A stretch of DNA of 64,000 bases from Deltaproteobacteria bacterium (GTDB taxonomy: Bacteria; Myxococcota_A; Polyangia; JAAYKL01): contig JAFGWT010000543.1 in assembly GCA_016937015.1 (NCBI GenBank), positions 30,440-94,439 on the forward strand. Direction: 5' to 3'. Below the pieces are notes generated by a model, which worked only from the letters and a program-made list of their open reading frames with translations, was not told the origin of the DNA and did no database searches. Of the stretch, positions 7,626 through 59,593 are shown piece after piece. How positions within the stretch are numbered: the stretch's first letter is position 1; each line of letters begins with the position of its first letter. A program made the position numbers and the translations under genes.

Positions 7626-8489
7626 ATGCTGAACAGAACGATACTTTTTGTAATAATACTGGTGATTTGCGGCTGTGTGAGTACTACCTATGCGCCGCCT
7701 GAGGACGATGTGAAGGATTCGGGGTCTCCCAATGATTCAGATTCGGGGCCAACCGGCGACAGCGACACCGATACCGACACGGACGCTGATACGGACACCG
7801 ATACGGATACTGATACAGACACCGATACCGATACAGACACCGATACCGATACAGACACCGATACCGATACAGACACCGATACGGACACCGATACGGATAC
7901 TGATACAGACACCGATACAGATACAGACACAGATACAGATACAGACACAGATACAGACACAGATACAGACACCGATACGGATACTGACACAGATACCGAC
8001 ACAGACACAGATACTGACATTGATACCACCACTGATTCTGAATCAGGTAGCGACACGATGGATACCGCAGATTCCGAAACGACAGATTCTGGATTGAACT
8101 GCACCGGCGGCACAACGGAATGCAACGGCGACTGCGTTGACTTGACATCAGATCCCAATAACTGCGTGACCTGTGGGAATGTCTGTTCAGACCCCACGCC
8201 ATACTGTGGTGCAACCGGGTGTGAGGCCGGGATTTTGCTGGCATACGGTGTCGGGGTTGAATTAGAGCCTGGCACTTATGCGATAACCACCGGAGCGACA
8301 GATAATCCATCCGGAACTGGTACCCTTGCGTTGCAGTCTGCAGGGGGCACAACCATTGATGCCAGCGTCACCTTTGACGGTACAACCGCCGAGGGCAATG
8401 ATTACTATGTCTCCTTTCCGAATATACCGGAGGAAACGACCGGTTCGCTAACCATCTCTGCATCGGTAACTATTACTTTTGAGTGGTAG
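7626..8489 (+). CDS. secreted lipoprotein: ~90-residue (Asp-Thr)n linker + Cys-rich module + beta-rich C-terminal domain
   Basis: lipoprotein signal (VICGC); DTDTDT... run encoded by GATACNGACACN repeats (7755-8030); C-x-G-x-C-V-D-L-x-S-D-P-N-N-C-x-x-C-G-x-x-C module. Confidence 0.6.
   Translation: MLNRTILFVIILVICGCVSTTYAPPEDDVKDSGSPNDSDSGPTGDSDTDTDTDADTDTDTDTDTDTDTDTDTDTDTDTDTDTDTDTDTDTDTDTDTDTDTDTDTDTDTDTDTDTDTDTDTDTDTDTDTDTDIDTTTDSESGSDTMDTADSETTDSGLNCTGGTTECNGDCVDLTSDPNNCVTCGNVCSDPTPYCGATGCEAGILLAYGVGVELEPGTYAITTGATDNPSGTGTLALQSAGGTTIDASVTFDGTTAEGNDYYVSFPNIPEETTGSLTISASVTITFEW
7755..8030 (+). repeat. GATACN/GACACN hexanucleotide-type coding repeat ((Asp-Thr)n linker)
   Basis: directly visible ~45 dipeptide-coding repeats inside CDS 7626..8489. 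Confidence 0.9.
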
Positions 8490-8526
8490 GTCAATTTTTT
8501 CGGCGCCAGTCGAACGACAAAAAAAA

Positions 8527-8550
8527 GGCGGGAATCGCTTCCCGCCTTTT
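8527..8550. terminator. bidirectional rho-independent terminator between convergent genes
   Basis: GGCGGGAA-tcgc-TTCCCGCC hairpin flanked by A6 upstream and T4 downstream, between 7626..8489(+) and flgE(-). Confidence 0.6.
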
Positions 8551-8585
8551 AATTGGTGATGAGGTGTTTTTAAGGAGCCTTCTTA

Positions 8586-9878
8586 CTAACGTTTCAGGTT
8601 CACGATCTCCTGGTAAAGCTGATCCGCTGTGGTAATGGTTCGGCTGTTGGCCTGGAAACCGCGCTGATATGCAATCAGATCCACAAATTCCGCTGCAAGA
8701 TCCACGTTGGATTGCTCCAATGCGTTTGATGTGATGGACCCGGCAGAACCTTCGCCCGCGCCGCCCACGCGTGCTGCACCGGACCCCTGCGTTTCAGCCC
8801 AGAGATTGCCACCGGCGCGCGCCAGTTCACCCTCGGCGTTGAAAGTCGCCATTGCCACCTGACCCACCAGACGCTGTTCACCGTTGGAGTAAATGGCCAT
8901 CACATGGCCGTTGCCTTCAACTCCCACGCCGTTCAATTCCCCGGTGCCGTAGCCGTCCTGCTCCTGGCTGCGTATGATGCTCGATGCAGCATACTGGGTC
9001 ACGCCATCGAGGCCTGTACCGCCTTCGGCAATGCTTTCGCCAAAATCAACTTGAATATCCTGCGAAGATGCGCCAGCGAAGGTGACCGTAAAAGGTGCGC
9101 TGGTATCATCAGCGAGGAATCCATCTGTGGTGAACGTCATCGTTCCGTTGCCAACCTGAGCATATGCGCCTGGTGTGCCGCCTAAATCGCCGTCATCCAC
9201 CAGACCGTACCATGACCATGCATTGGCACCGGTTTTGGCAAAATAAACGTCCATACGGTGAGATTCGCCAAGCGAATCATATACGGTGATCGCCGTTGAA
9301 AAATTGGATGCAATACCGGGGTCAAAGTTGGGATCCGCCAGATTCCACGGCGCTGTCGGCACATCTGCACCGGAATCCAGGTTTGCGGAAATATCAATGT
9401 TTTCCGATGCCTGAGGTGGCAAAATGGTGTTGGCAATGCGCAGGTCGGTCAGTTGATTGCTGATGTTGCCATTTGCGGTCGCCAGGTACCCCTGCAGGGT
9501 TAATCCCGCAGGATTCACCAGGGCTCCGGAGTTATCAAGCGTAAACTGGCCGGCACGAGTGTAAAAGTCGTTGGTCCACCCTCCGTTATTGCCGTTTACA
9601 ATGAAGAAACCGTTTCCGTTGATGGCGAGATCCGTTGGTGACTCCGTTGTAATAAATGTCCCCTGCGAAAAAACTCGCGTTATCCCCTGAATGGTCGAAC
9701 CCGATCCTGGCGCATCCGTCGCCAGAATGGAATGTCCGAGCACGTCAGCGAATACCACGGATTCCGCCTTGTACCCTGTGGTGTTGACATTGGCGATGTT
9801 GTCACCCACCACGCCAAGCGCTTTGCCATGGGACGCCAGTCCGGCCACGCCTGTGTATAGGGTTTTGATGATACTCAT
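8586..9878 (-). CDS. flgE: flagellar hook protein FlgE
   Basis: N-terminal SxxxGLxxxxxxLxVxGNNIANxNTxGYK and C-terminal VDLAxEFVxLIxxQRGFQANSRxITTADQ signatures. Confidence 0.9.
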   Translation of the reverse strand: MSIIKTLYTGVAGLASHGKALGVVGDNIANVNTTGYKAESVVFADVLGHSILATDAPGSGSTIQGITRVFSQGTFITTESPTDLAINGNGFFIVNGNNGGWTNDFYTRAGQFTLDNSGALVNPAGLTLQGYLATANGNISNQLTDLRIANTILPPQASENIDISANLDSGADVPTAPWNLADPNFDPGIASNFSTAITVYDSLGESHRMDVYFAKTGANAWSWYGLVDDGDLGGTPGAYAQVGNGTMTFTTDGFLADDTSAPFTVTFAGASSQDIQVDFGESIAEGGTGLDGVTQYAASSIIRSQEQDGYGTGELNGVGVEGNGHVMAIYSNGEQRLVGQVAMATFNAEGELARAGGNLWAETQGSGAARVGGAGEGSAGSITSNALEQSNVDLAAEFVDLIAYQRGFQANSRTITTADQLYQEIVNLKR

Positions 9879-20603: not shown

Positions 20604-21779
20604 TCAGTCGAACCTAACGGTTACTTCAGCGTGACCGGAGCTATGATATCCCTCTACAACCAACGATACCTCGTAGAAAGATCCCATTTGCAGGCCATAC
20701 TGTCCCCATGCCTGAAAGTGGGGGGCGACAGTAATCGTGCCGCTGGTACGCTTGTCGGTGCGCACGCTCCAGAACTGTGGGAAAGTGGCGGTTCCTTCGA
20801 TGGACGGCTGGTTGATTCGGTCGCTTTTGTATACCTCATAAGTGCCACCATCCACCTGAATCGTACCCAGGGGGCTTGTCCCTGGTGGACGCCAGCTGCC
20901 CCAGCTATCCACGATGTAGTATTCAACCAACGGATTTTGCGTCCAGCCGTAAATCGCCAGATAGGAATTGCCGTTGGGCTGGTAATTCGCACTGTAGGTC
21001 ACCACAGGCTCGGCGGATCCGGGTCTGACGCCTTTTCGGGCCAGATAATTCCCCTGTGCCTCGGTCCAGTCTGCGACAAAGCCGACCGCGGTATTGGTCA
21101 TACAGGCGGAACCACTGTCCGTCCAGATTTCGTAGGTGAGTCCGCAATGCTTACCTGACTGTGCGCTCGCGCAAGCCTGCATATCCCCTTCGGTACATGC
21201 GGGGGGATCGGCGTCTGTATCCGTGTCCGTATCGGTATCAGTGTCCGTATCAGTGTCCGTATCAGTGTCTGTGTCCGTATCGGTATCGGTATCCGTATCA
21301 GTGTCCGTATCAGTGTCGGTGTCAGAATCCGTAGCGCCGGGTTCGCAACAGATTGGTGTCTCTGATGGACATGTGTAGTCGGGGAGATAAGTGCCATTCA
21401 TGTTTCGACATTCTCCCTGTCCAACACAAGTTCCCGGACAATTCGTATCGCCATCTGAATCAGTGTCCGTATCTGTATCGCTGTCCGAATCCGAGTCTGA
21501 ATCGGTATCTGTATCCGTGTCCGAGTCGGTGTCTGAATCTGAATCAGTGTCTGAATCTGAATCAGTATCCGAATCAGTGTCTGAATCAGTGTCTGAATCC
21601 GAATCAGAATCGCTGTCAGTGTCTGTGTCACTGTCGGTATCTGCATCTGAATCCGAATCGCTATCTGAGTCGGAATCTGAATCGCTGCTGCCTTCTCTTA
21701 AATTGTCTTCTCCGCCAGTACACGCCGCGAAGAGAGAGACGGCAGACAGTAAGATTAAAACCAGTGCATGCTTCGTCAT
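20604..21779 (-). CDS. GH11 endo-1,4-beta-xylanase with lipoprotein signal, two (Asp-Ser/Asp-Thr)n linkers and an 8-Cys mini-module
   Basis: C-terminal 190 aa align by eye to GH11 signatures ([22 protein letters not shown] ... [12 protein letters not shown] ... [21 protein letters not shown]; both catalytic Glu present); start set at Met with lipobox LFAAC. Confidence 0.9.
21201..21332 (-). repeat. (Asp-Thr)n coding repeat, xylanase linker 2
   Basis: GTATCNGTGTCN repeats visible on + strand. Confidence 0.9.
21444..21686 (-). repeat. (Asp-Ser/Asp-Thr)n coding repeat, xylanase linker 1
   Basis: ~80-residue SD/TD run encoded by GA(R)TC/GTGTC-type repeats. Confidence 0.9.
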
Positions 21780-22074
21780 TTGGCTTTCCCTTTCAAAAAA
21801 ATCATTAATAAACCTTTTTATTTGCACCCCAGTCTCAAGCAAACAAGGGGTAATACATCTTAAAAAACGGGAAAATTTCGCTCATTATCGTTAAACGCTG
21901 ATCGCTAAAGATAGTACCATGGCGTTGTGTAATCGGAGCACCTAATTGGTTATTTTGTGATTTTTTTTTGGCATATGAATATTTTTACTGGTCGCTATGA
22001 TCGAAAAAAATGCAAGATTGGTCGCATTATGATATTTTTTACTTTATTTTTCGACGCCTTGTCCCTCCCTTTGA

Positions 22075-27133: not shown

Positions 27134-27286
27134 TTGCCAATTCTGTTATTTGTGATTTTTTGTAATTTTATCAAATAGATGTCCCGTCTTCATGTGGTAT
27201 AATTGTATTTTACGCCGTTTAGCCTGATTGATGAGATTGGGGTGTGCGGCATATCAGACGGACGCCATTTTATTCTGGAGGCATTT

Positions 27287-28177
27287 ATGAAGATGGTTAC
27301 TTTTACTCGGTCTGCCTTATTATTGTTTTTACTGTTTTTGTTGCTTGCAATGATATCGTGTTCGGAAAAGAGCGCGGATGAGCCACTGAATGACACCAAC
27401 CTCTCGGAGAATCAAGATACTACCACTGATTTTTCTGGCGACACGGATACTGATACCGACACCGATACTGATACAGATACCGACACCGATACTGATACCG
27501 ACACAGATACTGACACAGATACTGATACAGATACTGATACAGATACTGATACCGACACTGATACCGACACTGATACTGATACAGATACCGACACAGATAC
27601 TGTTACCAACACAGATGTCGACATGCATTCCGATTCAGATACGGCTACTGGTTCTGAAGATGATACAGACACTGGTTCCGGTTTAAATACTGATTCTGAT
27701 TTTGATGCTGACAGTGTTACTGACACAGATACGCATGCTGATTCCGACACGAGTGCCGACGCGAATACTGATACCGCAACAGATTCCGGCACCGATGCCG
27801 CCCCGGTGGCTGCTATTCTGGACGATTTACATCCGGGGTGGTACGCAAATGACTGGCACTACAAATCCAACTGCGCCTATAGTAACTGCCACAATGGTCT
27901 TGGTCCGGATCTGCCCACCGATCATGGAAGCTACGACGAACCATATTGCGCGGATTGCCATGGGGGAAATGGCGCATGGAAGCCAAATACTGCACACAAC
28001 CACCACCCGTCCCCCATGCCGACGAATTGTACTGGTTGCCATACCAACGGGCAACATGGCTTTACTCAGGACGCGGATTGCATTGCCTGCCATCTTGCGA
28101 ATGTTGGTACGGTGGATGGCTTCAGCACGCTTGGATGCGAAGCCGTGATATGCCATGCGGTTACCCCCACGCCGTAA
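27287..28177 (+). CDS. lipoprotein with (Asp-Thr)n linker and C-terminal c3-like multihaem cytochrome module
   Basis: GGAGG RBS; signal+lipobox (LAMISC); 3 canonical CxxCH (CADCH, CTGCH, CIACH) plus 2 CxxxxCH (CAYSNCH, CEAVICH) within ~100 aa with many extra His. Confidence 0.6.
   Translation: MKMVTFTRSALLLFLLFLLLAMISCSEKSADEPLNDTNLSENQDTTTDFSGDTDTDTDTDTDTDTDTDTDTDTDTDTDTDTDTDTDTDTDTDTDTDTDTDTDTDTVTNTDVDMHSDSDTATGSEDDTDTGSGLNTDSDFDADSVTDTDTHADSDTSADANTDTATDSGTDAAPVAAILDDLHPGWYANDWHYKSNCAYSNCHNGLGPDLPTDHGSYDEPYCADCHGGNGAWKPNTAHNHHPSPMPTNCTGCHTNGQHGFTQDADCIACHLANVGTVDGFSTLGCEAVICHAVTPTP
27441..27620 (+). repeat. (Asp-Thr)n coding repeat
   Basis: GATACNGACACN-type repeats, ~58 residues of pure DT. 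Confidence 0.9.
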
Positions 28178-28277
28178 TCATGGCTTTTAATGACGTAACC
28201 ATACTATCCGGTCGTGATTAACAGCATAGTGTGAAATTTTCAGTTGGGGCATGGGAAGGAAAGAGCAGCGATTTCTT

Positions 28278-28658
28278 CTATTTTGACGACCAGTTGCCGT
28301 GAATAGTGCAGTATTCCCTTGCAACAAGAGTATCGCTGTAAGGCACGTAAAATTCTGCTTCCGGTGGATCTCCTGGCTTTAGATATTTTCGCTGTACATA
28401 GTCACCGTTGATGACTTCAATCCATTCGATGAAGTGTTCTGCAATCATTGGGTGCGCCGTGGAGCCAACGACCACTTTGATTCCTTTTTCGGTTTTTTCG
28501 ATGATCGGTACGTGCTTCTCAGTGCTGTGATCAGCAGTCTTCTCTTTTTGGAGTGTCATTTCTTTGCCACAGCAGACCAGTGTACCGCCGGATGCATGTC
28601 CGACTTCCACCACATTGCCACATATTTCACATTTGTATATTTCCAGTCTTTTGGTCAT
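28278..28658 (-). CDS. dfx: desulfoferrodoxin (2Fe superoxide reductase)
   Basis: N-terminal desulforedoxin CxxC...CC site (CEICGNVVEV...VCCGKEM) and C-terminal neelaredoxin domain (EKHVPIIE...HPMIAEHFIEWIEV). Confidence 0.9.
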   Translation of the reverse strand: MTKRLEIYKCEICGNVVEVGHASGGTLVCCGKEMTLQKEKTADHSTEKHVPIIEKTEKGIKVVVGSTAHPMIAEHFIEWIEVINGDYVQRKYLKPGDPPEAEFYVPYSDTLVAREYCTIHGNWSSK

Positions 28659-36222: not shown

Positions 36223-38946
36223 TTAGTTGCGTGTCATTTGCATCAGTGTTTTTTGGTTTCTTTTTATCGTTTTTGCTTTGGCACTTGAAACGTTATCTTT
36301 CATTTGCAAAAAGCGTTCGTACGATGCGAGAGCGTCTGAAGCATATTGATGGCGCAGTTTTTTAGATTTCTCTATTTTGGTCAGATTGTATTCTGTGCGA
36401 CCTTTTACAAACCATGTGTTTGGCGGAATTCGGCCTGATCGTCTGATAATCTCGTTAAAGTGTGCGAGAGAGGATTTCAACACATCATATTGCTGTTCGC
36501 GAGTCAGTTTTGTTTTTCCGTCCCTTCCTGAGTCCCCCTTCTGATACAGGTCCATTCCATTGTCGTAGAGTTGTTCAATATTCATCTCGGCGATAGGTTC
36601 GATGTTATAGAGAGATATTGATTCTGATGGCTTCGCAACTGGTGCATTTTCTGCTTCTTCTGGCGCCGACGGTTTGGCAATGACAGCTGATTCCATTGAT
36701 GTGGATTCCTGTGGGTTGACGGAAGATACCGCCGCAGTCGTTACATCACTCTGGTCAGCTGAGGCCTTTGTCAATGTTGAATCCGCAGACAGGGGAGGCG
36801 TTACCTCTGCGTTGGTGTTGCCAGTTCGTTTTATCTCTTTATCCTGTTTTGGCGACGCTGCTGCCGAATCTCCCCATGTTGGCAGCCTGTTCAGAACAGG
36901 AAGGCTGTCCTTCGAAATGGGTGACCATGGTGACAGGAGGATGGCCACAGTGCTGCACAATAGCAGCACAACACCAACAATAACCCCTGCAATCAGTTTT
37001 CTACTACCAGTTGAGCCGATTGGATAAAATGAGATATTGGATTCCTCGGGAATGTCCTCATCCACCACGGATTCCTGTAATTTTGACAGGTCGATTTGCT
37101 GAATCTCATCATCCCCATTAAACACTGCGTGTGACCCGATATCCGCATCTGTTTCCACTTGTCTGCTTTGCTGTGCAGCCAATGCACCAATGTTTTCGTG
37201 GGTGGTGGTCAATGTTGCTTCTTCATCCTGAGTGTCGGGCGTCTGATATACCGCGGGGGCGGGCAGGGTGCCGGTGGCGGGCTGCAGCTTAATCACGGGG
37301 GGCGTGCCGATTTTTGTCTGGCTTGGCGGTCTGTTTGGTTTGTTCGTTCGAGCTGATGTGCCTGCGATGGCCCCGGGAATAGTGGAAAACATTTCGTCAA
37401 TTTCTTCGGGATTCAGTTGTTGCAGCTCGTTTACATCCACTTCGTCGGTATCGTTACCGACCATTGCAGTGGCTTTGTTGACCATCGCAGATTTCCATTT
37501 TTCGGCTTCCAGTTTCAAGTCGTTTATTTCCGCCCGCAGGCCAGATAGTCCTTTCCCCATTAATTTACCAATGCGCATCTCCATATCGGTAAGTTCAACC
37601 TGCAACTCCGCGTGAATTCGTTCTTCAATTTTAGGCAGTTCCTCCGAAACCCATTTCTCCATGGTTTTGGAAATCTCACCTGTCGCGAGCGCCAGTACGT
37701 CTCCCCTTGTACCAGCCAGGCGCTTTTGAATGTCCGTCCGGATTCGAGACTCCAACTCATCCATCTGATCCGGCAGCTGATCCATAACTTTCTGTACAAT
37801 TGACTGCATTTCCGATTCGATAATCGATCGGCGGTGCGATCGTCGCGGCTCAAACGGATCAGCCGGTGCAATCGACGCAAAACTGTCTGCCGCCATACTG
37901 GTGCGCGATTTGAGTTTCGGGGAACTGTTTCGTTTTTTTGGACGCAACCTCGCAGAGCTTGGTCTGTGGGGCAATATGGAATCCATGGCCCCTTCTGAAA
38001 GAGGCCCCTGGGTCTGTTCTTTGTGATTGTTTTCAGGCATCATGGAGATTGTGCCACTTTCGTCGTTGTCGAGGTTTGCGAGATTTACGAGAGAAAACAT
38101 CCCGTTCGACATAATATTGTCATTTTGACGTGTCCCCTGCCAGCCTGGCGAAAAAACCACCACACACCCATGTGTTTTTCCAAATTCTCTGAGCGCTTCA
38201 GCAATTCGTTGTGCCTGTTCCCGTGGGTCACCTTCGCCCATCCAGTGTTTCAGCTGATTCAGTGGAAAACTGGAGAGCGCTGCTTCCCTCGAAAAGAAGA
38301 CAAGCTGCTCGTTTTTTTTCATTGGTACAGTATTGGTTTGTATCTGCGGAATGAAATCACCTAAATCGCCAATCTTGCTGAACAGTCCACCGGCAATGTG
38401 ATCCTGCGTCAGCTTTTGAACCCTGGCGCCCACCAGATATTGCTGCGATTCGCCTCTATGGGAAATGTGAATTCCTCCATCGTAGTAGACAACCGCTTCC
38501 AGACTGTTGGTAATCCTGCTTATTAGACTGTTTTTCGCAGGTGCTTTTACATTGTTGGCCGCCTCCATTTTGTACGCGACCATCTCATCCTGCCCGTGGG
38601 TTACAGTATCCACCAGCATCTGATCAAGACCAGAGACTGTCTGTCCAAGCAGATTGCGAAACGCCGGATCGGAAGCGTCGACGTTGTCTGCCTTGCCGGC
38701 ACTGTTTTTTAAATAGTTGGAGATGTATTCCGCGATCAATGCGGTCGCAGTATTGCCCAGCTCATCAAGGATGGCAGTGTCAACACCGCTGCCTCGAAGT
38801 CGAATAGTATGGGCTTCCGCCATAACGATGGCGCCGTTTTCGGGATTTACAGTCAAATGGACTGTGCCGGATTTTTCAGGATCCAGAAATGCGACCCCAA
38901 CAGCACCGTTGGAGAACATGTTTTCGTCAACCGTCATGTCATCCAA
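36223..38946 (-). CDS. 907-aa single-TM protein: N-terminal PP2C-like (degenerate) domain, coiled coil, TM, C-terminal helical domain
   Basis: N-terminal 270 aa have PP2C-like layout but metal-binding DGxGG replaced (ILDELGNTAT); Pro/Ser-rich linker, coiled coil, TM helix LIAGVIVGVVLLLCSTVAILL; function unknown. Confidence 0.45.
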   Translation of the reverse strand: MDDMTVDENMFSNGAVGVAFLDPEKSGTVHLTVNPENGAIVMAEAHTIRLRGSGVDTAILDELGNTATALIAEYISNYLKNSAGKADNVDASDPAFRNLLGQTVSGLDQMLVDTVTHGQDEMVAYKMEAANNVKAPAKNSLISRITNSLEAVVYYDGGIHISHRGESQQYLVGARVQKLTQDHIAGGLFSKIGDLGDFIPQIQTNTVPMKKNEQLVFFSREAALSSFPLNQLKHWMGEGDPREQAQRIAEALREFGKTHGCVVVFSPGWQGTRQNDNIMSNGMFSLVNLANLDNDESGTISMMPENNHKEQTQGPLSEGAMDSILPHRPSSARLRPKKRNSSPKLKSRTSMAADSFASIAPADPFEPRRSHRRSIIESEMQSIVQKVMDQLPDQMDELESRIRTDIQKRLAGTRGDVLALATGEISKTMEKWVSEELPKIEERIHAELQVELTDMEMRIGKLMGKGLSGLRAEINDLKLEAEKWKSAMVNKATAMVGNDTDEVDVNELQQLNPEEIDEMFSTIPGAIAGTSARTNKPNRPPSQTKIGTPPVIKLQPATGTLPAPAVYQTPDTQDEEATLTTTHENIGALAAQQSRQVETDADIGSHAVFNGDDEIQQIDLSKLQESVVDEDIPEESNISFYPIGSTGSRKLIAGVIVGVVLLLCSTVAILLSPWSPISKDSLPVLNRLPTWGDSAAASPKQDKEIKRTGNTNAEVTPPLSADSTLTKASADQSDVTTAAVSSVNPQESTSMESAVIAKPSAPEEAENAPVAKPSESISLYNIEPIAEMNIEQLYDNGMDLYQKGDSGRDGKTKLTREQQYDVLKSSLAHFNEIIRRSGRIPPNTWFVKGRTEYNLTKIEKSKKLRHQYASDALASYERFLQMKDNVSSAKAKTIKRNQKTLMQMTRN

Positions 38947-39014: not shown

Positions 39015-41603
39015 TCAAAGTGCGTGATAATTTTGAGTTGTCGGTTCCCTGGAAGGAATCAATCCTGGGTTCTCAATCAGATGGCACATAACGAAACTGT
39101 CTGTCTGAATCGTTTTGAATAGTGCCATGCGATTCAGCGCATCAGGTATTGGGGTGTACATCTGCAATTTAGTGACAGTGCCGGTTCTGAACGATTCATA
39201 TCGAATTTGTGTATCCGACACGCCGCGTCGGCGCAGTGCATCAACCAATGGCCTGTACAGTGTTGGTGGGCCACAAATGAAATATGTTTTTCTGTCGAGG
39301 TTGTCAGGGAACAGCTCCAATACACCGCGGACTGATACACGACCGGTTCTGCCTTTCCAGAAACGGGAAGGACGAGAAAGGATGTGTGTTAGTCTGATGT
39401 TTGGATTTCTATTAACGACCTCGTTAATTTCGTCTTTGAATATTAAATCGGCCTCATGTCTGGCGCCGTACACCAGGTGAACCCGAGGTGCTTCGCGACT
39501 GCCGTCAAATTCCCGGAGCATGCTCATTATGGGAGTGATACCGCTACCTACCGCAATGGCCACAATGTCCTTTGTATCGCGTTCGGGAACATACACAAAA
39601 TCACCGAACGGTCCTGTTACAGAAAGCCTGTCTCCCACGCGCACATCGTTTACCAGCCAGCGGGACATGTTGCCGCCGGGCTGTGCTTTGACCGTGATAT
39701 CCAAATATTTGCCGTTTTCCGGCGCAGACGAAATACTGTACGCCCTTGTGACTCGTTGGCCACGGATATCCGCTGTGACATCCATATATTGACCTGCCCT
39801 GAAGTGCATGAACCGTTCTTTTTCCGGAAACAGACGCAAAGTCACCGTATCTGCCGTTTCAACTTTTCGAGATGTCACTTTCACCAGAATGTTGGCCGCG
39901 TGAAATCGCGCTGATTTATCGTAAGTACTGATGAAGGGTTCTTCCAGCGAGGAATTGTCGTACTTTCTGTACTTGCTTCGAATCACTTTTCCCACCCGTT
40001 TGCCGTCCCGAAACATCAGTTTCCAGCCATTAAGGCGCCGTTGCAGCGTTTGGTCGCGCACCGTCTGGCTCGCGCCGATGCCATAGGGGAGTTCATTCAC
40101 TTCTCCCCATTGCTCAAGAATGCACATAGCCGTGTTGTATCCGGATGTAATCACGCCCTGGTAGCCAGCGCTCGGGCGCGTCCATGCGCCTGCAAACCAA
40201 AGACCTTCCAGAGGCCCTTTGTTGTCCATTCGGAACCCCGGATTTTCCTCTGGCGTATTCGCGAAGCCATATATGGCGCCCTGCGGGTTTCCGGTATACC
40301 TGACATTGCTGACCGGCGTCGATACTATTTGAGTTTCAATTGCATCCCTTATCGCGGGGAACCGCTCGGCGACAATCTTTAGCAGCATTTTGCCGTAGCG
40401 CTCCTTTTCGATTGCATACTCCGCATCATTCAGGCTTGTCCACACCTCTCCCTGCTGAAGAATTGTAATCGCCAGCACGCCTTTTCCTTTCCGAGCAAAC
40501 GATGGGTTGGCGATGTCATATGCACACACCGAAACAACACCGGGAGAGCATAACTGGCCACAGCTTTCCCATTGCTTGTTCATATCTGTCTCCAGGTTGA
40601 TGTACAACTCGTGGTTGTGGATTCCCAACTCCCGGGTTGGTCGGTTCAGTCCAAGATAAAGCGTCACTGTTCCCGCACTGGGGGCGGCTGCCTCAAGACG
40701 GCGGATATGTTTGGGTTGAATGTGTTGCCTGTCAATGAGCCGTGTCAGTGTGCTGTATGGATCCGCGTTGGATATGACCGTATCTGTGAAGAAGGTATCG
40801 CCTTTGTCGCTTACAACCCCACAAACCCGACCATTTTCAACCAGAATCTGCTGAATTCCTTCTGACAGATGCACTTCGCCTCCATTTTCGCGAATTACAT
40901 CGGCATAAGCATTTGATAGTGACTGACTTTTTCCTTCAATTGTTACCGCTCCCCAGGTCAGGTAGCTGCTGACGCCGGCCGCAAACAGTAAGAACGACAG
41001 TTTGTCAGGGGGCAATCCGAAGTATCCCCAAAGCTGACCGAGAACCAGTTTCAGATTATCATTGGATATGTACCGGTTCATAACGTCCGATACAGTGGTT
41101 CCGGCTGCGTGCGCAAGGTTGGGAAATCGAGCCAGTGTTGGTAACGGGCTGGTCCCATATCCGCCTTCGCGAATGAGCTGAACTTCTTTGCCGACCGTAA
41201 CGATCTGCTGGATAAACGAATGAATCCCCGCTGCTTCGTCTGGAAATGCACTGATCAACACCGATTCGGCGTTGGCCGGAGAACGCGGGATGGTGATGTC
41301 CACACCATCTGCCATTGTGCGATACAGGTCCGGCAAAGGAATGAAGTTAACTTTGTCCAGTATGCCCAATGCGTCATAAAAAGTCCTGAGCGGTCCAGGA
41401 TTATCGGGTGTGCCAACACCGCTCATGGCATGAAGAGAAACTTCAAACTCAAAACCGTCTCTGAAAAAAGTTGTTGCGTATCCGCCCGGCTGACTGTGCC
41501 GTTCAAATACCGCCACTTTATGTCTATTTTTTGCAAGCGTTGCCGCGACGGTTAATCCCCCAAGGCCACTGCCCACAATGATTGCTTTAAACTGATTTCT
41601 CAT
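39015..41603 (-). CDS. fusion flavoenzyme: CrtI/phytoene-desaturase-like FAD oxidoreductase + C-terminal FNR-like (FAD/NAD(P)-binding) reductase domain
   Basis: N-terminal dinucleotide-binding GSGLGGL..VFERHSQPGG; C-terminal RAYSISS (RxYS FAD motif) and GSGITP (NAD(P) motif) of ferredoxin-reductase-type domains. Confidence 0.7.
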   Translation of the reverse strand: MRNQFKAIIVGSGLGGLTVAATLAKNRHKVAVFERHSQPGGYATTFFRDGFEFEVSLHAMSGVGTPDNPGPLRTFYDALGILDKVNFIPLPDLYRTMADGVDITIPRSPANAESVLISAFPDEAAGIHSFIQQIVTVGKEVQLIREGGYGTSPLPTLARFPNLAHAAGTTVSDVMNRYISNDNLKLVLGQLWGYFGLPPDKLSFLLFAAGVSSYLTWGAVTIEGKSQSLSNAYADVIRENGGEVHLSEGIQQILVENGRVCGVVSDKGDTFFTDTVISNADPYSTLTRLIDRQHIQPKHIRRLEAAAPSAGTVTLYLGLNRPTRELGIHNHELYINLETDMNKQWESCGQLCSPGVVSVCAYDIANPSFARKGKGVLAITILQQGEVWTSLNDAEYAIEKERYGKMLLKIVAERFPAIRDAIETQIVSTPVSNVRYTGNPQGAIYGFANTPEENPGFRMDNKGPLEGLWFAGAWTRPSAGYQGVITSGYNTAMCILEQWGEVNELPYGIGASQTVRDQTLQRRLNGWKLMFRDGKRVGKVIRSKYRKYDNSSLEEPFISTYDKSARFHAANILVKVTSRKVETADTVTLRLFPEKERFMHFRAGQYMDVTADIRGQRVTRAYSISSAPENGKYLDITVKAQPGGNMSRWLVNDVRVGDRLSVTGPFGDFVYVPERDTKDIVAIAVGSGITPIMSMLREFDGSREAPRVHLVYGARHEADLIFKDEINEVVNRNPNIRLTHILSRPSRFWKGRTGRVSVRGVLELFPDNLDRKTYFICGPPTLYRPLVDALRRRGVSDTQIRYESFRTGTVTKLQMYTPIPDALNRMALFKTIQTDSFVMCHLIENPGLIPSREPTTQNYHAL

Positions 41604-47327: not shown

Positions 47328-47397
47328 TAAGTGCTGCTGACACTTGTTCGATCCGTCGTGTAAACACACTGTCGACCGGGCAGAATTGAGAGGTCTA

Positions 47398-48084
47398 ATG
47401 GCGAATAATATGACGTTTTTGGAAACTTCCGTTGGCAAAAAGGTGCTTATGGCCGCCACCGGATTCATCATTTTTGGATTCGTGGTAGTACATATTCTGG
47501 GTAACCTGCAACTTTTTCTGGGGCCGGAAGCGCTGAATCAGTACGCGGCATTCTTGCAGGCGTCCGGTCCCATAAAATGGACCGTGCGTATTGTTCTGGC
47601 TGCCAGTGTGCTGGCTCACATTGTCAGTGCGGTGATGGTAACGCTGCAAAACTGGCGGGCCAGACCACAGAAATACGCGGTAAAACGCTATCAGGAAACC
47701 ACCTATGCTGCGCGCACCATGTGGCTGGGGGGCCCTATTATCGGGCTGTTCGTGGTGTATCATTTGCTGCATTTTACAACTGGACACTGTCATCCGGTTA
47801 AAGCGGGATTTATCCCCGATTCGAACGGGGTTATTAACGTATACAATAACGTCATATTCGGATTTCAGGACACTGTCGCCTCTGGTGTCTATATCTTCAC
47901 AATGGTGCTGATTGGCCTGCATCTGTATCACGGACTGTGGAGTATGATGCAGAGTGTCGGATTGAATCATCCTAAATACAACCATTGGCGCAAGGCATTC
48001 GCGGTGTTGTTCGCGCTGTTAATCGCCACGGCCGGTATCTCGTTGCCTGTATCGGTATTGCTGGGCCTGGTTACTCCGGTGTAA
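47398..48084 (+). CDS. frdC: fumarate reductase/succinate dehydrogenase dihaem cytochrome b subunit (5-TM, type B)
   Basis: 5 predicted TM helices with conserved His pairs; directly precedes flavoprotein and Fe-S subunits (Wolinella/Bacteroides CAB order). Confidence 0.8.
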
Positions 48085-48104
48085 CCGAGACAAGGAGCTT
48101 GCAT

Positions 48105-50018
48105 ATGAAACTTGATTCAAAAGCCCCGGACGGGCCAATCGAAAATCGCTGGGATTCACATAAATTCAACATGAAGCTGGTGAACCCGGCAAACAAGCGG
48201 AAATTTGACATCATCGTCGTAGGGGCCGGGCTCGCGGGTGCGTCGGCATCTGCAACTTTGGCCGAACTCGGATACAACGTGAGATGCTTTTTTTATCAGG
48301 ACAGTCCCAGACGGGCGCACAGTATTGCAGCCCAGGGAGGGATTAACGCCGCAAAAAATTATCAGAGTGATGGCGACAGCATTCATCGTCTGTTTTACGA
48401 CACTGTGAAAGGTGGAGACTATCGTGCGCGGGAATCCAATGTCTATCGGTTGGCTCAGGTCAGCAATAATATTATTGACCAGTGTGTGGCGCAGGGCGTC
48501 CCGTTTGCCAGAGAGTACGGGGGCAATCTGGCGAACCGATCATTTGGCGGCGCGCAGGTATCCCGAACTTTTTATGCCCGTGGACAAACGGGACAGCAGT
48601 TGCTGTTGGGTGCCTATTCGGCGCTGATGGCGCAGGTTAACGCCGGAAAGGTGAAACTGCACCGACGTAGCGAGATGCTTGAACTGGTCGTTGCAGATGG
48701 TCGGGCCCGCGGTATTGTCACCCGCGATATGGTCACTGGAAAAATAGAATCCCATGCTGCAGATGCCGTAGTGCTTGCCACAGGTGGTTACGGCAACGTG
48801 TTTTATCTGTCGACAAATGCCAAGGGATGCAATGTCACTGCAGCCTGGCGGGCATACACAAAAGGCGCTGGATTTGCCAATCCCTGTTACACCCAGATTC
48901 ATCCCACCTGTATTCCGGTGCATGGCGAATATCAGTCCAAACTGACGCTGATGAGCGAATCCCTGCGCAACGATGGCCGCATCTGGGTTCCAAAGAAAAA
49001 GGGTGACGATCGCGTGCCCACATCGATTCCGGACCACGAACGCGATTATTATCTGGAACGTCGATATCCATCATTTGGCAATCTGGTTCCGCGGGACGTA
49101 GCTTCCCGTGCTGCTAAAAAAGTGTGCGATGAAGGCCTTGGCGTTGGCAGCAGTGGTTTAGGGGTTTATCTGGATTTTTCAGACGCGGTAAAGCGACTGG
49201 GCGAAGACGGTGTTCGCGAGCGATATGGTAATCTTTTTCATATGTACGAAAAGATCACCGCAGAGAATCCTTACAAAGTACCGATGCGAATTTTTCCTGC
49301 GGTGCATTACACCATGGGCGGTCTGTGGGTGGATTACAACCTGATGACAACCATTGATGGCTGCTTTGCCATTGGCGAGGCCAATTTTTCCGATCACGGC
49401 GCGAATCGTCTGGGCGCCAGTGCACTGATGCAGGGACTTGCGGACGGTTATTTCATTTTGCCTTACACCATTGGCGACTACCTGGCGACTGCTGGTAAAA
49501 ACAGCATCCACAGCGATGACAAATATTTCTCAAAATCGAAGGATGATGCGCATGGCAAAGTAAACAGGCTGCTGGCCATCAAAGGTGAACGTACCCCGGA
49601 TTCATTTCATCGGGAACTGGGCAAGCTTCTTTGGGACAACTGCGGCATGGCGCGCAGTGACGAGTCGCTTAAGCGCGCGCTGGAAAAAATTCCAAAAATA
49701 AAAGACGAATTTTGGCAAAACGTCAAAGTCCCGGGGGAGGGCAAGGAACTCAATCAAACGCTGGAAATGGCGGGCCGTGTGGCTGACTTCATCGATTTTT
49801 CGGAAGTTCTGGTTAGAGACGCTCTTGCGCGCACCGAGTCCTGTGGCGGTCATTTCAGGGTGGAAAGCCAGACCGATGAAAACGAAGCCAAACGGGACGA
49901 CGATAACTTCGCACATGCGGCCGTGTGGGAATATAAAGGGGAGGGCACCATTCCGGAACGTCATACGGAACAGCTGTCGTTTGAATACTGCAAGCCGAGT
50001 CAAAGGAGTTACAAATAA
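48105..50018 (+). CDS. frdA: fumarate reductase/succinate dehydrogenase flavoprotein subunit
   Basis: [19 protein letters not shown] fold, covalent-FAD His context ([14 protein letters not shown]), active-site HPT and RL motifs; start at MKLDSK. Confidence 0.95.
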
Positions 50019-50764
50019 TGAATTTTACGCTCAAAGTGTGGCGCCAGAAGCCCGGTGAAAAAGGGAAAATCGTTACATATGACGCAAAAGAGATAAGTTC
50101 GGATGCGTCTTTTTTGGAGATGCTCGATATCGTGAATGAGCGCCTTGTCATTGAGGGGGAGGAAGCCATTGCATTTGATCATGACTGTCGCGAAGGAATC
50201 TGCGGTATGTGCGGCTGTGTGGTGAACGGATATGCCCATGGCCACCAGGAAGGCACCACGCTTTGTCAGCTACATATGCGCGCATTTGAGGACGGCAGTG
50301 TGATATATGTGGAGCCTTGGCGGTCGAGGGCATTTCCGGTACTCAAGGATTTGGTTGTGGATCGCAGTGCGTTTGACGCCATTATCACAGCAGGTGGTTA
50401 CATTTCAATTCGAACCGGATCCGCGCCGGATGGCAATGCTATCGCCGTGTCGAAAGAAACAGCCGATGCAGCCATGGATGTGGCGGAGTGCATTGGGTGC
50501 GGCGCATGCGTGGCGGCCTGTCCGAATGCATCGGCGATGTTGTTCACATCGGCCAAAATATCTCAGCTGGCACTATTGCCGCAGGGACAGCCGGAACGCA
50601 TGACTCGGGCGCAACGTATGGTTCGAGCGATGGAAGTAGCGGGGTTTGGCGCATGCACCAATCACGGCGAATGCGAAGCTGCATGCCCAAAAGAAATCAA
50701 ACTCGACAATATTGCCCGGCTGAATAGGGAATTTATTGGCGCGTCGGTCAAAAAGCAAGCTTGA
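50018..50764 (+). CDS. frdB: fumarate reductase/succinate dehydrogenase iron-sulfur subunit
   Basis: 2Fe-2[11 protein letters not shown], 4Fe-4[13 protein letters not shown], 3Fe-4S C...CEAACP motifs. Confidence 0.95.
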
Positions 50765-52386: not shown

Positions 52387-52648
52387 ATTTATTAAACTTA
52401 ATGTTAAAACTTGACCTGGAATCGCAAAGTGAGAAACCTACGGAACCTATCGGAATACAAAAGTTTTTTGGTTAAGAATGGCATTGGAATTTCTTTGAAC
52501 GCGTTTCTTTTATATATTCACTTTTCGCGTCAAAGAGCGTAAAATGTGGCGCAGCAAAAAACAATATCTTTAGGGATATTCACTTAAGGAATCCGGATCT
52601 GATGCAAGGAAAATTTCAGGTCCATAGCAAATTGTGAGGGAATTTATC

Positions 52649-53569
52649 ATGAAAAAACAAAACCTATTATTAATCTTAGCGATGGCGCTGCTTACCGGTT
52701 TTGCATTTATTGGATGCGGAACCGATGATGAGGGCCCGGGCCTGAACAAGTCTGCCACAGGCGACTCTGACAGTGACACTGACAGCGACAGCGACTCTGA
52801 CAGTGATTCAGACAGCGACAGCGACTCAGATAGCGACAGCGACTCAGACAGCGACAGCGATACTGACAGCGATAGCGATAGCGATGGCGGTGGTACCGAA
52901 TGTGACGGCAACGACAAAGATTGCTACAGCGAATGCTGGGGTTGTGCATTGTCTTCAGCTGCACTTTGTAAACCAACGCTTGAAGATTGCCTGATGGACA
53001 CAAAATGTGCTGCGTATTACGATTGCAAAGACAAAACCTGCTGTGGCGGTAACGACAACTGCCTCACTGGCGACGAGTGGGAAGACTGCATGAAAGGTTG
53101 TGCTGAAACCGCAGAAGCAACCGATGCAACTCTCGAAATGTATAAAGACATCGATTATTGTGTTGCCTGTGAAGCATGTGAAATCTCATGCGCACAGGGC
53201 GAGTCCGCTGACTTCGCCATGTGTGGTAATCCTGAAGATATGAACAACCCCGACAATCCCTGCTACGAAGCCGATGCTGAACCCGGTCAGACTGCCTGTT
53301 TCTCATGGGCCGGTTGGGGTGGACCCTGTACGACCGCCGTTACAAACTGCAAAAACGACGACAAATGTGAGACTCTGGAGACATGTGTAAACGAAACCTG
53401 GGCGTATGACGATTGGTCCGCCCGTCAGGACGTTTGTTTCGCAGATGCTGGATCAGCTGCCGAAACACTGTATTGGGCTTACATGCAATGCATCTACTGT
53501 GACGCATGTGATGTCGCCTGTCTTAAAGATGCTGGCTCCAAAAACTGCGACGAATACAGCGGTAAATAG
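52649..53569 (+). CDS. Cys-rich secreted lipoprotein, paralogue A ((Asp-Ser)n linker + ~250-aa novel Cys-rich domain)
   Basis: TGAGGG RBS; lipobox FIGC; shares with paralogue B the motifs CDGxDxDCYxxCWGCALSS, CVACxxCxISC, ACFSWAGWGGPC, DDWSARQD, YMQCIYCxAC. Confidence 0.6.
   Translation: MKKQNLLLILAMALLTGFAFIGCGTDDEGPGLNKSATGDSDSDTDSDSDSDSDSDSDSDSDSDSDSDSDSDTDSDSDSDGGGTECDGNDKDCYSECWGCALSSAALCKPTLEDCLMDTKCAAYYDCKDKTCCGGNDNCLTGDEWEDCMKGCAETAEATDATLEMYKDIDYCVACEACEISCAQGESADFAMCGNPEDMNNPDNPCYEADAEPGQTACFSWAGWGGPCTTAVTNCKNDDKCETLETCVNETWAYDDWSARQDVCFADAGSAAETLYWAYMQCIYCDACDVACLKDAGSKNCDEYSGK
52763..52885 (+). repeat. (Asp-Ser)n coding repeat (GACAGY/GAYTCN)
   Basis: visible hexanucleotide repeats within paralogue A. 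Confidence 0.9.
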
Positions 53570-53791
53570 CTGAGTCCTCGGATAACCATTTCCCCCATTT
53601 CATTTCTTTTATTCAATCTGTAGGTGATATTTTTTAAGTGACATTCTTTTCCCAGGATGCCGCTGAAAATAACTATTTTTTTTTGAGCCGAATTGAATTT
53701 GGTTCCCACCATATTACTATAGCAACACGAATGATGCCGCAACTGGTTACGGTATCACGTGCTTTTATGTCTTAAACGATGGAGGTCTCTT

Positions 53792-58243: not shown

Positions 58244-59593
<1,350 letters not shown>

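Follow-up and report, generated by a model that had tools for sequence, protein, structure and literature searches.

The classical cytochrome c3 of Desulfovibrio vulgaris is marked by an N-terminal pair of His residues, a CxxCHH motif, and a 2-4-2-4 order of heme-motif spacings. Cytochromes of the c7 type, represented by the Geobacter PpcA family and by the dodecaheme GSU1996 (PDB 3ov0, 3oue, 3ouq, and 1rwj), are soluble periplasmic proteins in which each domain carries three CxxCH motifs, and tetraheme cytochrome c3 and the c3-like domains of the Hmc and nine-heme cytochromes of Desulfovibrio (PDB 1h29, 1gws, 1z1n, 1duw, and 1aqe) pack four hemes into approximately 100 residues and tolerate CxxxxCH motifs. 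In the flavocytochrome c3 fumarate reductase of Shewanella (Fcc3; PDB 1qo8), electrons enter a periplasmic flavoenzyme through a tetraheme module. PgcA of Geobacter sulfurreducens, presented under the name "microbial heme-tethered redox strings," is a lipobox-containing cytochrome in which Thr-rich repeats give reach and flexibility (PMC10570954). A comparable stalk outside the cytochromes is the long acidic Ser-Asp dipeptide repeat that separates the anchor of the staphylococcal Sdr/Clf adhesins from their functional domains.

Here, we analyzed a gene from a metagenome-assembled genome (MAG) within a stretch of 64,000 nucleotides of DNA, referred to below as the window. Its product is likely to be a Sec-exported, lipid-anchored c-type tetraheme cytochrome, with a probable role as an envelope-tethered carrier that relays electrons.

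An intact lipoprotein gene absent from public annotation

The gene occupies positions 27287 to 28177 of the window on the forward strand and is an intact open reading frame of 296 codons plus a stop codon. The 296-residue product is laid out in four parts, namely, a lipoprotein signal ending at Cys25, a 145-residue Asp/Thr-rich linker, a Cys/His module of approximately 100 residues, and a short tail. An alternative start, TTG at 27203, was rejected in favor of the ATG at 27287 because both a ribosome-binding site, GGAGG (27277 to 27281, + strand), read directly from the sequence 5 nucleotides upstream, and the signal peptide go with this ATG. No protein record matches the TTG start or two alternative starts, and the NCBI record of the MAG holds no protein accession for the gene. 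A second gene encoding a D[TS] linker that we checked (7626 to 8486) is likewise missing from the protein collection, which suggests that gene calling has trouble with such repeats rather than that the cytochrome gene has become a pseudogene. The last 207 residues of the protein recur without change on a Logan contig assembled from SRR13394436, a run that is possibly not independent of the source sample of the MAG and on which a literature search found nothing. The open reading frame is a real gene that public annotation lacks.

Four heme motifs and four further histidines are conserved in an unnamed family

The C-terminal part of the protein contains three CxxCH and two CxxxxCH motifs within 95 residues, which consume all ten of its Cys residues. 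Shuffling of the 126-residue C terminus excluded a chance origin for this cluster: five motifs arose in none of 200,000 shuffles and four in only 2 of 200,000.

A word-indexed search with the C terminus alone found no relatives, and a search with the full-length protein was swamped by unrelated DT-repeat lipoproteins, with a single true module homologue (P0070). An exhaustive HMMER scan was needed, and this detected 67 relatives at an E value of ≤1e-3. The module family comprises approximately 100 metagenomic proteins, mostly from Myxococcota-like MAGs, which are unnamed or labeled "hypothetical protein"; the same holds for every one of the 62 proteins retrieved by a profile search. A literature search for a Myxococcota lipoprotein multiheme cytochrome found none. 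We aligned 60 members with the target as the reference row (alignment A1, in domain numbering), to which the target is 34 to 52% identical. Sixteen columns are invariant, corresponding to H12, the four CxnCH motifs, G56, N58, and G59. The target carries all of them, which argues for continuing selection for heme binding.

In the target, the conserved module covers residues 171 to 279 (27797 to 28123, + strand), as delimited by alignment A1, profile matches, and an AF2 model. Its first motif, CAYSNCH (residues 196 to 202; 27872 to 27892), stands at a conserved position with variable spacing, with 2, 3, or 4 residues between the Cys residues in 53, 2, and 37 relatives, respectively. The second, CADCH (residues 221 to 225; 27947 to 27961), is followed by GGNGA-W. 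The third is CTGCH (residues 248 to 252; 28028 to 28042), and the fourth is CIACH (residues 265 to 269; 28079 to 28093). Variable spacing, of 2 to 6 residues, is confined in the family to motifs 1 and 3, the second and fourth motifs being CxxCH in every case. The remaining motif, CEAVICH (residues 284 to 290; 28136 to 28156), lies in a nonconserved C-terminal tail (residues 280 to 296; 28124 to 28177 with the stop codon). The preliminary description had counted five heme motifs. All five are present, but only four are conserved in the approximately 92 four-motif relatives, none of which has a motif at the position of CEAVICH, and the tail (domain residues 110 to 126) has a pLDDT below 50 in the AF2 model. 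The target may therefore be read as binding four, and possibly five, hemes.

The same description had pointed to abundant His for bis-His ligation, and the alignment bears this out at the level of sequence. Besides the four motif His residues, exactly four His residues are conserved in A1: H12 in 60 of 60 members, H43 in 59, H69 in 57, and H87 in 59. In the target, these predicted distal ligands are H182 (27830 to 27832), H213 (27923 to 27925), H239 (28001 to 28003), and H257 (28055 to 28057), all on the + strand. Eight such residues are enough for four bis-His hemes, and they follow a regular H...CxnCH arrangement that is repeated four times. This arrangement is unlike the pattern of Desulfovibrio cytochrome c3, and the spacing at motifs 1 and 3 varies within the family, so the mixture of CxxCH and CxxxxCH motifs cannot serve as the c3 signature that it was first taken to be.

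Other family signatures are an invariant HxGW start, the sequence CHGGNGA(C), and a covarying pair of Cys residues, one after GGNGA and one near the C terminus. Both Cys residues are found in 52 of the 60 members and neither in 7; in relatives, the pair presumably forms a disulfide. In the target, Trp stands in place of the first of these residues, and the aligned terminal site lacks Cys as well. Since its subgroup has lost the Cys pair and gained a tail, its function may have diverged.

The module is distantly related to cytochromes c7 and c3

We compared the target with the curated models considered for class III cytochromes (PF02085, PF14537, PF14522, TIGR04257, and NF047727). None scored above its threshold (Pfam c3_2, 19.2 versus 25; c7, 14.3 versus 24.8; NCBIfam CctA, 17.3 versus 180), and all 60 relatives also fell below the curated thresholds. 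Nevertheless, members touch Pfam models at E values of <0.1, with 45 of 60 reaching Cytochrome_C7, 33 c3_2, and 27 CIII. When the family profile was run against PDB sequences, the matches were almost exclusively c-type cytochromes. The best was GSU1996 (3ov0; 4.1e-17 overall), for which the per-domain E values are modest (1e-4 to 0.08) and the summed score can be inflated by Cys/His-rich repeats. This was followed by Hmc (1h29, 1.2e-9; 1h29 and 1gws both approximately 1e-9), the 16-heme cytochrome (1z1n, 2.8e-9), and the nine-heme cytochrome (1duw, 9.5e-5). Matches to Fcc3 (1qo8, 0.0016), to the small tetraheme cytochrome STC/CctA (NCBIfam CctA against the target, 0.0039), and to c3 itself (0.018) were weak, and those to Fcc3 and STC/CctA lie far below the family cutoffs. 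NCBIfam matches to the MSCRAMM adhesins SdrC/D and Clf (1e-14 to 1e-10), the only ones above noise in that collection, were rejected as compositional, at 53 bits against cutoffs of 999 to 2,500.

Module motifs 2 to 4 align with the three CxxCH motifs of each c7-type domain at similar spacing. A ligand-bearing segment precedes the middle motif in both, and both are small, heme-dense modules for electron transfer in the envelope. The target family differs from c7 in having four conserved motifs rather than three, the extra one being N terminal, in its HxGW, CHGGNGA(C), and Cys-pair signatures, and, in the case of the target, in being a long-stalked lipoprotein. With the Desulfovibrio proteins the module shares heme density, tolerance of CxxxxCH, and presumed bis-His ligation, and its four motifs can all be aligned with the c3-like domain at the C terminus of Hmc. 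In contrast to classical c3, the motif order is Cx4CH, Cx2CH, Cx2CH, Cx2CH (followed by the Cx4CH of the tail); only one His precedes each motif, and CHH is absent. The target thus has the motif density (roughly one per 25 to 30 residues), a candidate second axial His for each heme, and the profile similarity to solved members of class III multiheme cytochromes, but a score below every curated threshold. By these matches, the module is distantly related to the c7 and c3 cytochromes, a modest variant of a well-known class rather than a new kind of system.

The low scores leave room for a heme-free reading, in which the module would be a Zn-, Cu-, or Fe-binding or disulfide-rich domain or the open reading frame an unexpressed relic rightly skipped by annotation. 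Consistent with this are the missing accession, an AF2 model of the module (mean pLDDT of 70) for which a structure search found no match, and the 64-kb window itself, in which we found no cytochrome c maturation genes (ccm/ccs), quinol dehydrogenase, or other c-type cytochrome. However, the profile retrieves almost nothing but c-type cytochromes, the His after the second Cys is invariant in all four motifs, and four extra His residues, no more and no fewer, are conserved with them. The reading frame is intact, with a ribosome-binding site and every invariant residue, and a second linker gene shares its absence from the protein collection. We therefore consider the heme-free reading highly improbable and infer that hemes are attached covalently and ligated by two His residues each.

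The acidic stalk is shared by many lipoproteins of the lineage

Residues 1 to 25 (MKMVTFTRSALLLFLLFLLLAMIS-C25; 27287 to 27361, + strand) form a lipoprotein signal peptide with the lipobox Cys codon at 27359 to 27361. By direct reading, this segment satisfies a PROSITE-type lipoprotein rule (PS51257 type: K or R in the first 7 residues, an uncharged hydrophobic run, [AGS] at position -1, and Cys within residues 15 to 35), with K2 and R8, a hydrophobic core, and A-M-I-S-C25. Of the 92 four-motif relatives, 72 show a pattern that loosely resembles a lipobox. The signal peptide is followed by an acidic low-complexity stalk of 145 residues (residues 26 to 170; 27362 to 27796, + strand) that includes 50 Asp, 46 Thr, and 13 Ser residues. 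Within it, an uninterrupted (DT)27 run spans residues 52 to 105 (27440 to 27601). A linker of approximately 60 residues, as first reported, fits this pure run but not the whole stalk, which is more than twice as long. TRF analysis of the stalk DNA gave periods of 12 and 54 with 85 to 87% matches, indicating synonymous variation between repeat copies.

The preliminary description was correct in depicting a lipoprotein that combines an acidic DT stalk with a compact c3/c7-like multiheme module, as the lipobox, the stalk, and the profile homology to solved multiheme cytochromes attest. It had also presented the tethering of a cytochrome by such a stalk as an undescribed arrangement, a view that we do not share. 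The same type of linker occurs on four other lipoproteins in the window (7626 to 8489; 20604 to 21842, a GH11 xylanase; 52634 to 53569; and 53759 to 54724), which makes five in all, and on many unrelated lipoprotein-type enzymes of related MAGs. Among the latter, a Pfam GH5-type cellulase, an endo-mannanase, and an endo-galactanase carry the same signal, lipobox, and (D[TS])n. The DT stalk is a habit of the lineage and no special device. PgcA is, moreover, a published precedent for a lipoprotein cytochrome bearing Thr-rich strings of low complexity (PMC10570954). Compared by description, the target resembles PgcA in joining a lipobox to a cytochrome domain through low-complexity repeats. It differs in having one compact tetraheme module, similar to c7/c3-type and not monoheme domains, which is linked to the anchor by just one acidic (DT)n string. 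In PgcA, neutral (PT)n strings separate three monoheme domains, and the protein is released after cleavage. The Sdr/Clf adhesins share the acidic dipeptide stalk, but their anchor is a C-terminal LPXTG motif in place of an N-terminal lipid, and the functional domains are not homologous.

The preliminary description had considered an outward-facing conduit or an Fe(III)/humics-reducing module. In this reading, the cytochrome would be exposed at the cell surface, and the long acidic string would allow it to contact and reduce Fe(III), humics, or other acceptors outside the cell, providing an extra electron sink for a largely fermentative, fumarate-respiring xylan degrader. The glycoside hydrolases that bear the identical signal, lipobox, and (D[TS])n, including the GH11 xylanase of the window, must meet polymers beyond the outer membrane. 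PgcA, with its Thr-rich strings, can likewise be extracellular and bind and reduce metal oxides (PMC10570954), and the window contains genes for fumarate reductase and 2-oxoacid:ferredoxin oxidoreductase. However, a linker that is generic to the lipoproteins of the lineage says little about the final compartment. No porin-cytochrome, second multiheme, or secretion genes were found beside the target or the 27 homologous loci, and neither the window nor the 6 kb on either side of each of these loci contains a further open reading frame with at least two CxxCH motifs. The cluster of a porin with partner cytochromes that marks Mtr-type conduits is thus missing, leaving no visible route for electrons over the outer membrane, and the domain fusions of relatives, described below, point to soluble catalytic partners and not to minerals. 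On balance, we regard surface display as rather doubtful.

Fusions of the module to deiodinase-like and flavoprotein domains in relatives

In 9 of the 27 homologous loci (L002 to L028), the module is fused to a deiodinase-like domain, with an in-frame TGA in seven and Cys in two (L021 and L028). In 15 of the 92 four-motif proteins, the sequence breaks off precisely at the Sec codon of this domain, and a covarying bacterial SECIS-like hairpin with compensatory changes lies 11 nucleotides 3' of the TGA. The fused thioredoxin-fold domain matches AhpC-TSA (4e-4). In another fusion (L026), the module is joined to a FAD amine-oxidase-family domain. The layout of this relative is that of Fcc3, but its flavoprotein part belongs to the amine-oxidase family and not to the fumarate reductases, and the target itself has no fused catalytic domain. 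The fusions to deiodinase-like domains and to one flavoprotein make the module look like an extracytoplasmic electron-input unit.

These fusions could mean that the target is a dedicated donor and no general shuttle, feeding in trans an extracytoplasmic reductase that is a separate deiodinase-like thioredoxin-fold protein or a flavoprotein. The frequency of the deiodinase-like fusion, the Sec codon with its hairpin, and the single flavoprotein fusion all speak for such a role. On the other hand, tblastn found no deiodinase-like domain in the 64-kb window, stand-alone genes of the family have no conserved neighbor, and the target belongs to the possibly diverged subgroup with a tail and without the Cys pair. 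We judge this dedicated role to be unlikely for the target. We know of no function established for bacterial deiodinase-like proteins, and the selenoprotein fusions suggest that these act as heme-fed extracytoplasmic reductases. A heme-to-selenol path outside the cytoplasm is not mentioned in a 2026 selenoproteome review.

A model for a tethered electron relay

We favor the interpretation that the target is an envelope electron relay. Following cleavage of the signal peptide at Cys25, the protein would hang from the membrane, probably the outer membrane, on its disordered Asp/Thr string of some 145 residues. Long disordered N-terminal linkers have been described as typical of E. coli lipoproteins destined for the outer membrane (bioRxiv 10.1101/2021.01.05.425367). 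At the end of the string, the module of approximately 100 residues would covalently bind four low-spin bis-His hemes, with proximal ligands from the motifs beginning at residues 196, 221, 248, and 265 and distal ligands from H182, H213, H239, and H257; a fifth heme may sit on the lineage-specific tail motif at residues 284 to 290. The stand-alone protein would most likely take up electrons from donors that are quinol linked or periplasmic and pass them to partner reductases or to acceptors outside the cell, and in some relatives the module appears to be hard-wired to its catalytic domain, either the deiodinase-like Sec/Cys thioredoxin fold or the FAD amine-oxidase-family domain. The reading frame, lipobox, linker, heme and His pattern, cytochrome relatedness, and fusions of relatives are read from sequence and homology, whereas heme attachment, bis-His ligation, the membrane and its leaflet, and the partners of the target are inferred.

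A more speculative synthesis, which we think unlikely to hold as a whole, would treat the family as an unrecognized class of lipid-tethered tetraheme "plug-in" electron modules of Myxococcota-like bacteria, often wired to a selenocysteine deiodinase-like reductase to give a heme-to-selenol path outside the cytoplasm. The stand-alone, disulfide-less version in the target, with its possible fifth heme, would then be exposed at the cell surface by a string reaching up to approximately 40 nm, like the xylanase with the same anchor, and would be the outlet to external acceptors for the electrons of a polysaccharide degrader that lives mainly by fermentation.

A recurrent family of small multiheme cytochromes captured by no curated model represents an annotation gap. 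If the family does bind heme, anaerobic polymer-degrading Myxococcota-like bacteria that seem to be fermentative or fumarate respiring carry an extracytoplasmic electron carrier, which would bear on the spread of envelope and extracellular electron transfer.

Genomic neighborhood and flanking signals

A desulfoferrodoxin gene, dfx (28278 to 28658, - strand; Pfam Desulfoferrodoxin domains, 3e-20 and 2e-16), lies convergently 100 bp downstream, in agreement with the first account of the locus, which had placed dfx immediately downstream on the opposite strand. Drainage of electrons to O2 or H2O2 has been proposed for periplasmic cytochromes of anaerobes, and the target could have such a role in defense against oxygen or reactive oxygen species together with dfx. 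Besides this adjacency, relatives carry fusions of the module to deiodinase- and peroxiredoxin-like thioredoxin folds that might be peroxide related, given the match to AhpC-TSA. However, the two genes are not cotranscribed, because they are convergent, and desulfoferrodoxin is cytoplasmic. The adjacency is also not conserved: over 28 loci, no dfx or other oxidative stress gene recurs beside the homologues, where the only recurring elements are the family itself, the fused domain, and scattered or antisense open reading frames. The 64-kb window contains no paralogue of the module. With no conserved neighbor over the 28 loci, we rejected an operon-based assignment of function and a link to dfx, and a role in oxygen defense appears improbable.

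Upstream of the cytochrome gene, a 153-bp AT-rich gap 3' of a SnoaL-like gene contains a candidate extended -10 promoter element, TGgTATAAT (27195 to 27203, + strand), proposed from its match to the consensus; a consensus scan did not list it because a good -35 element is absent. At the other end of the gene, pattern matching identified a weak terminator-like hairpin (28171 to 28184, + strand), with a 5-bp stem that overlaps the stop codon and is followed by TTTT.

Gene structure and acidic stalk

Direct reading of the sequence confirmed the preliminary description of the gene at 27287-28177 (+), which is an uninterrupted ORF of 296 codons plus stop encoding a lipoprotein signal, a DT stalk and five C-x2/4-CH motifs. 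A ribosome-binding site, GGAGG (27277-27281, +), lies 5 nt 5' of the ATG. The 153-bp AT-rich gap separating the gene from the upstream SnoaL-like gene holds a perfect extended -10 match, TGgTATAAT (27195-27203, +), a candidate promoter element by consensus only, which the promoter consensus scan did not list because it has no -35. The desulfoferrodoxin gene dfx (28278-28658, -) lies downstream on the opposite strand, as had been described, and is convergent with the target. Exact-protein look-up found no record for any of three start-codon variants, so public annotation apparently passed over the gene. Accessions run consecutively through the SnoaL-like gene (MBN2719294.1), dfx (MBN2719295.1) and the response regulator (MBN2719296.1). 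The same look-up gave no record for the DT-stalk lipoprotein at 7626-8486, and the repeat-bearing lipoprotein genes of this MAG seem to be systematically missed by public annotation. The C-terminal 207 residues of the target have an identical copy on a Logan contig from run SRR13394436, which may or may not be independent of the MAG source sample.

On direct reading, residues 1-25 (MKMVTFTRSALLLFLLFLLLAMIS-C) follow the standard lipoprotein rule. Residues 26-170 form a 145-residue low-complexity stalk (50 Asp, 46 Thr and 13 Ser) that includes an uninterrupted (DT)27, and the underlying DNA repeats with periods of 12 and 54, its copies being 85-87% alike. Small lipoprotein-anchored multihaem c-type cytochromes are a well-known class, and the tether has precedents. 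The preliminary description knew of no earlier account of such a module tethered to a lipid anchor by a DT linker. The stalk itself recurs in four other ORFs of the window, which combine a signal peptide, a lipobox Cys, (D[TS])n and a domain at the C terminus in the same way. These encode a Cys-rich domain with a weak Stig1-like match (7626-8489), a GH11 xylanase in which a small Cys-rich insert lies between two acidic linkers (20604-21842), and tandem paralogues whose Cys-rich domain of approximately 230 aa has no above-threshold Pfam match (52634-53569 and 53759-54724). The full-length homologue search also brought up numerous proteins with DT repeats from "Deltaproteobacteria" and other MAGs; some of the matches listed were annotated by Pfam or at source as GH5-type cellulase, mannanase, galactanase, LTD, DUF1566 or FGE-sulfatase, and of the ten that were read at full length most had a lipobox-type N terminus. 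The DT linker is a convention across the lineage and is not specific to the target. A further precedent is Geobacter PgcA, a cytochrome that is likewise a lipoprotein and contains Thr-rich strings of low complexity; it is termed a "heme-tethered redox string," and its (PT)n stretches are implicated in binding metal oxides (PMC10570954). In E. coli, long disordered linkers are reported to be typical for lipoproteins bound for the outer membrane (bioRxiv 10.1101/2021.01.05.425367).

A family of four-motif, predicted haem-binding modules

All ten Cys in the last 126 residues of the target sit in the motifs CAYSNCH, CADCH, CTGCH, CIACH and CEAVICH, and none of 200,000 shuffles of these residues produced five motifs. 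Unrelated lipoproteins with DT repeats made up most of the full-length search output, and a single true module homologue (P0070, 42% identity) stood among the matches inspected. An exhaustive HMMER scan with the 126-aa C terminus against 1.84 billion representatives yielded 67 proteins at E <= 1e-3, and a profile search yielded 62 proteins, all unnamed or "hypothetical protein" at source. The relatives span 115-250 aa, and most have a lipobox, a disordered and often acidic predomain and then a module of approximately 95 residues. In an alignment of 60 modules with the target as reference, H12, C26, C31, H32, C51, C54, H55, G56, N58, G59, C78, C81, H82, C95, C98 and H99 (domain numbering) were invariant, and H43, H69 and H87 were kept in 57-59 sequences. 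The family pattern of four haem-attachment motifs plus exactly four more conserved His fits four bis-His haems by count, with H202, H225, H252 and H269 (full-protein numbering) as the proximal ligands within the motifs and H182, H213, H239 and H257 as the predicted distal ligands.

The mix of CxxCH and CxxxxCH motifs had been read as a cytochrome c3 signature. Across 92 four-motif family members, however, the number of residues between the Cys of motif 1 was 2, 3 or 4 (53, 2 and 37 members, respectively) and that of motif 3 ranged from 2 to 6, whereas it was 2 in motifs 2 and 4 of every member. The mix therefore reflects variation inside the family. Some relatives (P0201-P0204, P0184, P0235 and P0236) have six or eight motifs, with the N-terminal dihaem unit (HxGW...CxnCH...H...CxxCHGGNGA) repeated ahead of the C-terminal dihaem unit. 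Because of this repetition, the tetrahaem module appears to have been assembled from two different dihaem halves.

The target scored below the curated cutoffs of Pfam Cytochrom_c3_2 (19.2 versus 25 bits) and Cytochrome_C7 (14.3 versus 24.8) and of NCBIfam CctA (17.3 versus 180). Searched against all PDB sequences, the alignment profile matched almost exclusively multihaem c-type cytochromes: the c7-type domains of Geobacter GSU1996 (3ov0; E = 4.1e-17, per-domain 1e-4 to 0.08), Desulfovibrio Hmc (1.2e-9), the 16-haem cytochrome (2.8e-9), the nine-haem cytochrome (9.5e-5), flavocytochrome c3 (1.6e-3) and cytochrome c3 (0.018). The three motifs of the c7-type domains align with family motifs 2-4, and the C-terminal c3-like domain of Hmc aligns with all four. 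We conclude from these comparisons that the module belongs to the c3/c7 superfamily as a remote member and forms an unnamed family of its own. A non-haem or nonfunctional module is highly improbable, being contradicted by both the cytochrome profile matches and the conserved His pattern. What is new is an unnamed, unmodeled family that has a ligand pattern and a Cys pair of its own.

This pair consists of a Cys right after CHGGNGA and another near the C terminus; both are present in 52 of the 60 aligned modules and neither in 7. The two covary perfectly, which suggests a disulfide. In the target, the first site is occupied by Trp and the aligned terminal site lacks Cys. Its 17-residue C-terminal extension, modeled by AlphaFold2 with pLDDT below 50, carries the fifth motif, CEAVICH, which has no counterpart at that position among the four-motif relatives. 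H191 is also unique to the target ("WHYK" versus "WQYK" in the closest subgroup), and spare His are present at 237 and 240. Given this motif, H191 and the spare His, a fifth haem in the target is conceivable, if somewhat improbable. The lost Cys pair, the extra motif and the unannotated gene are novelties of the target alone.

Catalytic-domain fusions in relatives

At 9 of 27 homologous loci, the haem module shares a fusion protein with a deiodinase-like domain of thioredoxin fold, which matches NCBIfam NF038285 (1.5e-17) and, more weakly, AhpC-TSA and T4_deiodinase. Seven of these loci read into the domain through an in-frame TGA (FGSYT-U-PPY): L002 (fusion 8001-9065, TGA 8640-8642), L010 (TGA 6721), L012 (8481), L017 (4725), L018 (2631), L024 (8454) and L025 (1480). 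Cys occupies the TGA position in L021 (7791-8981) and L028 (3501-4856). Gene callers split or truncate the fusion proteins at the TGA, and 15 of the 92 family proteins end exactly at the fusion point. A 7-bp hairpin that begins 11 nt past the TGA is conserved in the seven loci (8631-8705 in L002; equivalent 75-nt stretches in the other six), with compensatory changes in four of its seven pairs and G/U in the loop, and is consistent with a bacterial SECIS element. These family fusions to Sec-containing deiodinase-like domains are new, and a 2026 selenoproteome review makes no mention of a tetrahaem-deiodinase-like selenoprotein fusion (PMC13188914). At L026 (31-2013), in a Thermodesulfobacteriota MAG, a lipoprotein carries a divergent haem module fused with a domain of the FAD amine-oxidase/phytoene-desaturase family (Pfam Amino_oxidase, 2e-23), a layout like that of flavocytochrome c3 but with a different flavoenzyme.

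The fusions of catalytic domains in relatives indicate that the haem module serves as an extracytoplasmic electron-input or relay unit. They are also the basis for an alternative that we consider unlikely, in which the target is a dedicated electron donor whose partner, a deiodinase-like protein or a flavoprotein, is encoded by a separate gene. Within the 64-kb window, no deiodinase-like domain or module paralogue was found.

Genomic context and proposed function

The window also encodes a flagellar gene cluster, a sulfatase, FGE-like proteins, an ammonium transporter and regulators. A three-gene succinate dehydrogenase/fumarate reductase (47344-50764, +; flavoprotein and Fe-S subunits plus a membrane subunit whose match is weak), a 2-oxoacid:ferredoxin oxidoreductase (55206-57750) and dfx fit an anaerobic quinone-using lifestyle, and such metabolism could feed an envelope cytochrome. 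Neither Ccm/Ccs genes nor a second protein with at least two CxxCH motifs was found within the 64 kb. We propose as the probable function that the target would be exported by Sec, receive its lipid at Cys25 and depend on a Ccm or Ccs system for maturation, and that a c7/c3-like module with four bis-His haems, on a long flexible acidic tether, would relay electrons within the cell envelope. The intact gene, the lipobox, the linker, the conserved pattern of motifs and His, the homology to solved cytochromes and the fusions in relatives are shown by the sequence comparisons; attachment of haem, its ligation, the compartment and the partners are inferred.

The 27 homologous loci, mostly from Myxococcota or Myxococcales, "Deltaproteobacteria" and Thermodesulfobacteriota MAGs, share no conserved neighboring gene, and no other multihaem ORF lies less than 6 kb from any of them, which argues against a porin-cytochrome conduit and against a functional tie to dfx. 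The surface-displayed outlet to Fe(III) or humics proposed in the preliminary description draws on PgcA and on the architecture common to the target and the window xylanase, but no conduit genes were found, and we regard it as possible yet doubtful. The dfx next door had also been pointed to; its adjacency is not kept across the 27 loci and the two genes are convergent, making O2/ROS defence together with dfx very unlikely.

Elsewhere in the window, an 862-aa protein (39015-41603, -) is a fusion of two parts, an amine-oxidase-type flavoprotein and an FNR-like FAD/NAD-binding module, and adjoins a 907-aa ORF with no Pfam match (36223-38946, -). A 462-aa protein (58244-59632, -) contains a C2 domain (Pfam, 1e-13), which binds Ca2+ and lipid, occurs mainly in eukaryotes and is uncommon among bacteria.
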